Below, piece after piece: positions 40,792 through 41,228 of a DNA stretch of 64,000 nt (the first letter of the stretch is position 1; the number at the start of each line of letters is the position of its first letter). The notes under the pieces were generated by a model. It had not been told where the DNA came from. It saw nothing but the letters and a program-made list of their open reading frames with translations, and did not search any database. Position numbers and translations under genes: made by a program. The stretch is from assembly GCF_030013595.1 (NCBI RefSeq), contig NZ_CP122768.1; one strand, written 5' to 3'. This DNA comes from Escherichia coli. GTDB taxonomy: Bacteria; Pseudomonadota; Gammaproteobacteria; Enterobacterales; Enterobacteriaceae.

Positions 40792-41228
40792 ATGTAAATT
40801 ATCAATAAAAGGCGTTATTTTATAATTATTTATAATGAGTTGTGAGTGTTTATTTTATTACGGTTGGTAGAGATATACAAAAAGTATTTTTTTACAGTGG
40901 GTTCGCTATTTTAAAAAGGAATTCATATGAGGAAAAAATATAATTATGTTATTTATTGGCAGATTGAATTGACAGGGGGCAGAAATCTGAGGGTAAGAAA
41001 AGTCAGCAACTACAATCCACTACATCAACAGACCAGAAATCGCGTGCCGCGATACGCTGGAAATACCCGTAGATTGAACTGGCGGATGGTGTGACTGACA
41101 TCGGTCAGTGATGACTTTTTAGCAAACTATGTTCGATCAGTCAGCATATTTGCTGACTGGTCGAATTGACTAACAATGATGTTAACTTACTCTTTTTCCT
41201 GATGCTCTATTTTTGGGTTGTGAGTGTT

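Follow-up and report, generated by a model that had tools for sequence, protein, structure and literature searches.

The AT-rich spacer between yfbL and elaD of Escherichia coli as a probable remnant of a lost yfbK gene

The DNA analysed here (the window) is a stretch of 64,000 nucleotides from Escherichia coli in which nuoN on the forward strand is followed by yfbM, yfbL (39820-40791), elaD (reading frame 41229-42404) and rbn, all on the reverse strand. From the yfbL start at 40791 to the stop codon of the elaD reading frame at 41229-41231 there is a spacer of 437 bp (40792-41228). An earlier note made from the sequence had drawn attention to this spacer as AT-rich and edged by a 12-bp direct repeat, and both descriptions were borne out: its G+C content is 35%, compared with 35.5% for elaD and 51.5% for the window. 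An 801-bp segment around the spacer is 100% identical to E. coli strain HCP5S3_I2. In K-12 MG1655 an additional gene, yfbK, lies between yfbL and elaD, divergent to the former and convergent to the latter; its 575 codons specify a vWA-domain lipoprotein. The nearby nuoN-yfbM gap also varies: it measures 67 bp in the window (39147-39213), contains yfbP, yfbO and yfbN in K-12 (∼2.5 kb), and carries an IS200/IS605 tnpA in HCP5S3_I2 that the window does not have.

The spacer was compared with the K-12 locus (L001) by blastn and MAFFT alignment. Two blocks were recovered, the left one (window 40500-41051, L001 3901-4461) running from the 5′ end of yfbL through the intergenic region into yfbK, of which it includes the first 132 nt, and the right one (window 41072-41700, L001 6018-6644) covering the last 40 nt of yfbK, a 70-nt convergent spacer with a hairpin (hairpin 2, see below) and the elaD 3′ end. 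The yfbK sequence in the window amounts to ∼185 nt (40927-41111) in three pieces (Table 1), which are colinear with the K-12 gene, lie at the syntenic position and have the same orientation; over 18 of 18 nt, piece 2 is identical to the yfbK allele of L029, one of the related Escherichia loci described below. Codons 45-485 and 493-563 (512 of 575) are missing. The deletion junctions relative to K-12 fall at 41051/41052 and 41072/41073 with at most 1 nt of microhomology, and both cuts are in frame at codon boundaries; the sequences across them read CCGCG|ATACGC and CCCGNAG|ATTGAA. Coding capacity has been lost in what is left: piece 1 contains frameshifting indels of −2, −1 and −4/−5 nt and has had the codon for the lipobox cysteine deleted, and the last codon of piece 2 is an internal TAG (41070-41072) in the window where other strains have CAG or AAG.

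Table 1. Features of the yfbL-elaD region (window coordinates)
Feature	Position	Strand	Evidence or comparison
yfbL body adjacent to the divergent block	40600-40737		window vs L032, 81-83%; window vs K-12 type, 98%
yfbL signal-peptide codons and intergenic region	40738-40926		window vs L032, 83-87%; window vs K-12 type, 63-68%
Divergent yfbL/yfbK intergenic region	40792-40926		colinear with K-12 L001 4193-4329; holds the left 12-mer (40839-40850)
Left 12-mer copy, GTTGTGAGTGTT	40839-40850	+	GTTATGAGTGTT or GTTATGAGCGTT in other spacer-bearing genomes; GTTTCGATATTG in K-12
yfbK piece 1, codons 1-44 (lipoprotein signal peptide and linker)	40927-41051	+	L001 4330-4461; 74-80% identity to intact alleles
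yfbK piece 2, codons 486-492 (IRWKYPQ), ATACGCTGGAAATACCCGTAG	41052-41072	+	19/21 vs K-12 L001 5785-5805, in frame
yfbK piece 3, codons 564-575 (IELADGVTDIGQ) and TGA stop (41109-41111)	41073-41111	+	∼97% identity, L001 6019-6057
Former yfbK/elaD convergent intergenic region	41112-41181		colinear with K-12 L001 6058-6127, ∼94% identity
Hairpin 2	41132-41165		15-nt arms 41132-41146 and 41151-41165, TATT loop, one G.T pair
Ancestral elaD 3′ end, last 15 codons and canonical stop (41182-41184)	41182-41228	−	K-12 elaD alignment; out of frame here
Premature elaD stop (41229-41231)	41229-41233	−	1-nt deletion at 41231/41232

Of 5426 complete E. coli genomes, 2577 matched the spacer colinearly over its full length in one piece, and ∼2480 genomes are K-12-like with yfbK. 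Six divergent spacer-bearing genomes, a B-strain derivative among them, have both junctions identical to those of the window. Because all sampled yfbK-less genomes with this spacer share the same junctions, a single old deletion event is indicated. In L004 and L008-L011, which comprise B-strain derivatives and several other genomes with this spacer, yfbL is itself annotated as frameshifted, owing to deletions of 4-7 nt directly after the start codon (equivalent to window 40775-40790).

The direction of the change was addressed with loci from related Escherichia lineages, located by protein search and exact-protein look-ups; in a degenerate-pattern scan for the YfbL motif FYQPWVNA, L025 was the one Escherichia locus recovered, and the eight other matches were unrelated and due to chance. 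Intact yfbK genes are found at the syntenic position in L025 (Escherichia sp. MOD1-EC7003), L029 and L032, indicating that yfbK was lost from the window lineage and not gained by the K-12 type. With the opposite polarity, the short spacer would be ancestral and yfbK would have been inserted in K-12-type strains; this would agree with the closer resemblance of window block 40738-40926 than of its K-12 counterpart to the related Escherichia lineages. However, insertion cannot yield three ordered, in-frame yfbK pieces (5′, middle, and 3′ with the stop codon), and loss is thereby established. L032, which has a window-like regulatory block, also retains an intact yfbK, and the lineage represented by L026 lost the gene independently with different breakpoints, so we consider an insertion in the K-12 type very improbable. 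In that lineage (L026-L028, YfbL P0013), which also lacks elaD, yfbK was removed by a single internal deletion, and the spacer between rbn and yfbL keeps ∼119 nt of the yfbK 5′ end and 146 nt of its 3′ end. This independent case makes yfbK loss recurrent.

The 12-mer GTTGTGAGTGTT is not a frequent sequence: even when one mismatch is allowed, the window contains it nowhere but at 40839-40850 and 41217-41228, which bracket 366 bp. The earlier note had read the pair as the edges of a deletion or insertion scar at a place where other strains carry an extra gene, or of a small non-autonomous element. The first of these proposals was right in that yfbK has been lost here and wrong about the breakpoints: the junctions found by comparison with yfbK-carrying genomes lie 201 nt and 145 nt from the two 12-mers. 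A repeat-mediated deletion also leaves one copy of the repeat, but both copies are present. For the second proposal, in which the 12-mers would be the target-site duplication of a ∼370-bp element, a search for further copies of the unit located the spacer in 4204 records at 4209 places (median, one per genome). No terminal inverted repeats were detected (40851-40880 does not pair with 41187-41216). K-12, which has yfbK, already contains the right copy inside elaD and has GTTTCGATATTG at the left site, and among the genomes seen there was none with a single 12-mer in place of the interval.

An exact 12-mer pair around 366 bp does speak for a repeat-based origin, and taking the spacer alone such a repeat arose in only 1.1% of simulations; the pair was, however, chosen after a scan of 64 kb. 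Exact direct repeats of 12 nt or longer, spaced by at most 500 nt, number six across the window, compared with 1.75 (Markov order 1) to 2.9 (order 3) in simulated sequences. The other five pairs (39699/40194, 14120/14216, 17314/17701, 27850/27914 and 61366/61408) served as a chance baseline only. The left breakpoint of a deletion in an elaD-less locus type (L006) abuts the left 12-mer, but its right breakpoint is at 42294 and not at the second 12-mer. In most spacer-bearing genomes the left copy has 1-3 mismatches: all six of the more distant genomes have GTTATGAGTGTT or a still less similar sequence at the left site, and of four close relatives two carry both copies exactly, the other two each lacking one exact copy. 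The mapped breakpoints refute a repeat-mediated scar, and the copy number and missing inverted repeats refute a small element; neither deserves more than a trace of credence.

The right 12-mer had been described as immediately beside the elaD stop. That stop is indeed at 41229-41231, but it is premature, being created by a frameshift, and the canonical stop lies at 41182-41184. The K-12 ElaD C-terminus reads ...NLEIKHSQPKNRASGKRVS and then stop, and the right 12-mer encodes the HSQ of its ...EHSQP... segment and is kept in K-12 at L001 6163-6174. Given the 1-nt deletion, the premature stop and the position of the canonical stop, the right 12-mer is ancestral elaD coding sequence, and the 47 nt to the right of 41181 look intergenic because the deletion truncates elaD. 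PGAP annotates elaD as frameshifted, with the same end position, in the 100%-identical genome. The same 1-nt deletion is common to L013 and L015, both annotated as frameshifted, and elaD is intact in other close relatives. Taken together, promoter-region sequence and the coding tail of elaD agree over these 12 nt by coincidence, and the repeat did not contribute to the deletion. Exact identity of the two copies is specific to the lineage of the window, where it arose by point substitution. A caution follows for similar cases: chance alone will place a 12-bp direct repeat around an AT-rich spacer a few times in 64 kb, and such a repeat without breakpoint evidence is not a signature of a mobile element or of a deletion.

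Both hairpins named in the earlier note are present. Hairpin 1 (ACTGAC-ATCG-GTCAGT, 41094-41109) lies within yfbK piece 3 and is coding sequence for the YfbK C-terminus (VTDIGQ and stop); its fold is no better than that of shuffled sequences (z = −1.4). Hairpin 2 was found close to where it had been placed (∼41140-41161), at 41138-41159, and extends beyond this to the 15-nt arms listed in Table 1. A kinship of the two hairpins through a shared CTGAC core was considered and rejected, as the window has 183 CTGAC/GTCAG sites, the pentamer being a common one. Hairpin 2 has a symmetric stem of 15-16 bp, is located downstream of both stops, at 16 nt from the canonical one of elaD and 20 nt from that of yfbK, and has a folding energy of −26.5 kcal/mol (z = −8.7) for the plus strand and −20.2 kcal/mol (z = −6.8) for the minus strand. 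K-12 and every sampled elaD-carrying genome retain it, beside elaD in both haplotypes. Stem variants in the sampled genomes are few and consist of G.U or C.A changes, with no compensatory pairs.

Because hairpin 2 is strong, well placed and kept wherever elaD is present, a role at the elaD 3′ end is suggested, and we put the chances at about even that it is a putative 3′-end or terminator structure of elaD. It could define the 3′ end of elaD mRNA either by termination or by blocking exonucleases. With yfbK gone, hairpin 2 would stand between the co-directional elaD and the downstream yfbL and might separate elaD transcription from yfbL. A U-tract 3′ of the stem is absent on both strands, the tails being TTGACTAAC (+) and CATAGTTTGCT (−), and a terminator scan flagged the weak hairpin 1 alone, which is followed by a short T-run. 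The supplement of a Term-seq resource (PMC12207403) has no entries for elaD, yfbK or yfbL.

The surviving yfbK promoter might also drive a short non-coding RNA or a small protein from a transcript of ∼180-240 nt ending at hairpin 1 or hairpin 2. The divergent promoter region has been kept, with two hairpins downstream in sense orientation, of which hairpin 1 with its T-run was flagged as terminator-like; both deletions are in frame, 40955-41100 shows little variation among remnant-bearing genomes, and PGAP called a 44-aa hypothetical open reading frame there in one strain. That frame is not conserved, however, being interrupted by the TAG at 41070-41072, shifted by indels and deprived of the lipobox cysteine. 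The low variation is no lower than in the adjacent elaD, and the hairpin 1 fold is not significant. A sigma-70 promoter scan found 3 sites compared with 2.9 in shuffled sequences, and thus no excess. Searched against Rfam with a permissive E-value, 40600-41400 gave only noise (best match E = 0.56, far below gathering). An expressed remnant is therefore improbable. Judging from its position, the region around 40792-40926, upstream of yfbL on the minus strand, would contain the yfbL promoter and 5′ UTR, and the same interval also contains the former yfbK promoter region. The working parts of the spacer would then be solely this yfbL promoter/5′ UTR and hairpin 2.

Identity between the window and K-12 is 96-99% through yfbM and yfbL, 63-78% over 40738-41051, and 93-97% from 41072 on. 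Within the diverged stretch, the ∼190 nt of 40738-40926 (yfbL signal-peptide codons 1-18 and the intergenic region) are 63-68% identical between the window and the K-12 type; the intergenic part, 40792-40926, is 68% identical to the K-12 type and 87% identical to L032, which has intact yfbK and a nuoN 97.6% identical to that of the window. The YfbL signal peptide reads MKKMTPLYFISLLLSLPF in the window and MKKIIFAFIILFVFLLPM in K-12. Pseudogene decay alone was rejected as the explanation for the low identity of 40738-40926, since the window is 83-87% identical to L032 over the block and it is the K-12 allele that is the outlier. The extra decay in the remnant class is confined to the yfbK 5′ piece. 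The K-12 type has 63-74% identity to all outgroups in 40738-40926, and this difference in identities to outgroups marks the K-12-type block as the outlier and the window type as vertical-looking. The block thus has a separate allele history that looks like that of a replaced regulatory region, and it has nothing to do with the 12-mers. If true, the K-12-outlier block would represent a regulatory-region replacement that changes yfbL expression between E. coli lineages. Two functional readings can be drawn from these elements. In one, the yfbK promoter and hairpins would still yield a short transcript, or the two codon-exact, in-frame deletions would initially have given a mini-lipoprotein of 64 codons that was selected for a while; in the other, separate from it, replacement of the regulatory block in the K-12 outlier would have altered yfbL expression. 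We rate these readings as unlikely.

Other haplotypes show further rearrangements of the same interval. M24 (L012) has yfbK and lacks elaD, carrying an unrelated 144-bp filler (L012 4546-4689) in place of K-12 L001 6031-7523 (window ∼41085-42591). The final 9 codons of yfbK and everything up to the rbn stop are replaced, which alters the YfbK C-terminus. Since the filler takes the place of this whole block, elaD together with both hairpins behaves as a replaceable cassette. An inverted repeat, 41066-41095 with 42608-42637, was tried as the cassette ends and set aside as weak (77% complementary, blast E = 0.36, offset by ∼27 nt from the right cassette boundary). The arms of this imperfect 30-nt repeat around elaD are the yfbK 3′ end and the rbn 3′ end, both of which encode ELA[DN]. 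Strain 82.0311 (L006) lacks both yfbK and elaD and descends from the window type through an additional deletion of 40856-42293, with TGTTT microhomology at the junction (L006 3250-3256); the deletion joins elaD′ and yfbL into one reading frame, from which gene callers predict a 378-aa M28 peptidase (P0004). IS1-associated deletions also occur at the locus. The elaD gene has been described as absent from phylogroups B2 and G (PMC12575377), which fits the elaD-less haplotypes found here.

We conclude, with a probability of about 88%, that the spacer is an old deletion scar that contains the remains of the lost yfbK and the former convergent spacer with its hairpin, that it formed without involvement of the repeat, and that it is not mobile. 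In the ancestral arrangement, yfbL and yfbK were divergent and yfbK and elaD convergent. Codons 45-485 and 493-563 of yfbK were then removed by two internal deletions, or by one in which the 21-nt piece was kept, after which the yfbK 5′ piece degraded through indels and substitutions. The leftovers are the divergent promoter region, the dead yfbK, the convergent spacer with its hairpin and, in this strain, 47 nt of non-coding elaD. The literature on yfbK and elaD, including two ElaD papers (PMC1847702 and PMC12575377) and the supplements of the Term-seq resource (PMC12207403), describes no remnant or terminator at this place. What separates yfbL from elaD in about half of the complete E. coli genomes, those of B/BL21-type strains included, is an unannotated yfbK remnant, at a locus marked by repeated independent losses of yfbK, of elaD, and of yfbN, yfbO and yfbP. 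For this variable locus between nuoN and rbn, the outcome is a cleaner annotation and little beyond that.

The closest known counterpart of the spacer is a pseudogene fragment left by internal deletion, seen at the population level as a presence-absence polymorphism of an accessory gene. It shares with such cases the ordered 5′, middle and 3′ pieces of yfbK at the syntenic position, the broken frame, the single copy per genome and fixation in a large part of the species. It differs from the usual gene remnant only in curiosities, namely the deletions at codon boundaries and the neighbouring regulatory block with its separate, deeply diverged allele history. The likeness to a MITE with its target-site duplication is superficial and limited to a short AT-rich block inside a direct repeat; unlike a MITE, the spacer lacks both further copies and terminal inverted repeats, and its repeat is not conserved and has one copy within coding sequence. 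Hairpin 2 resembles the bidirectional intrinsic terminators and mRNA 3′-stabilising hairpins found between convergent genes in its strong symmetric stem, its position 16-20 nt past both stops and its retention with elaD. Compared with a canonical intrinsic (Rho-independent) terminator, it has the stable G+C-containing stem-loop but is flanked on neither strand by a U-tract or an A-tract. Switched intergenic regions (horizontal regulatory switching) are known in E. coli, and block 40738-40926 resembles them in being sharply bounded and 63-68% identical between flanks of coding DNA that are 96-99% identical; it differs in that it is a neighbouring block, distinct from the 12-mer feature, whose donor and direction are partly resolved.
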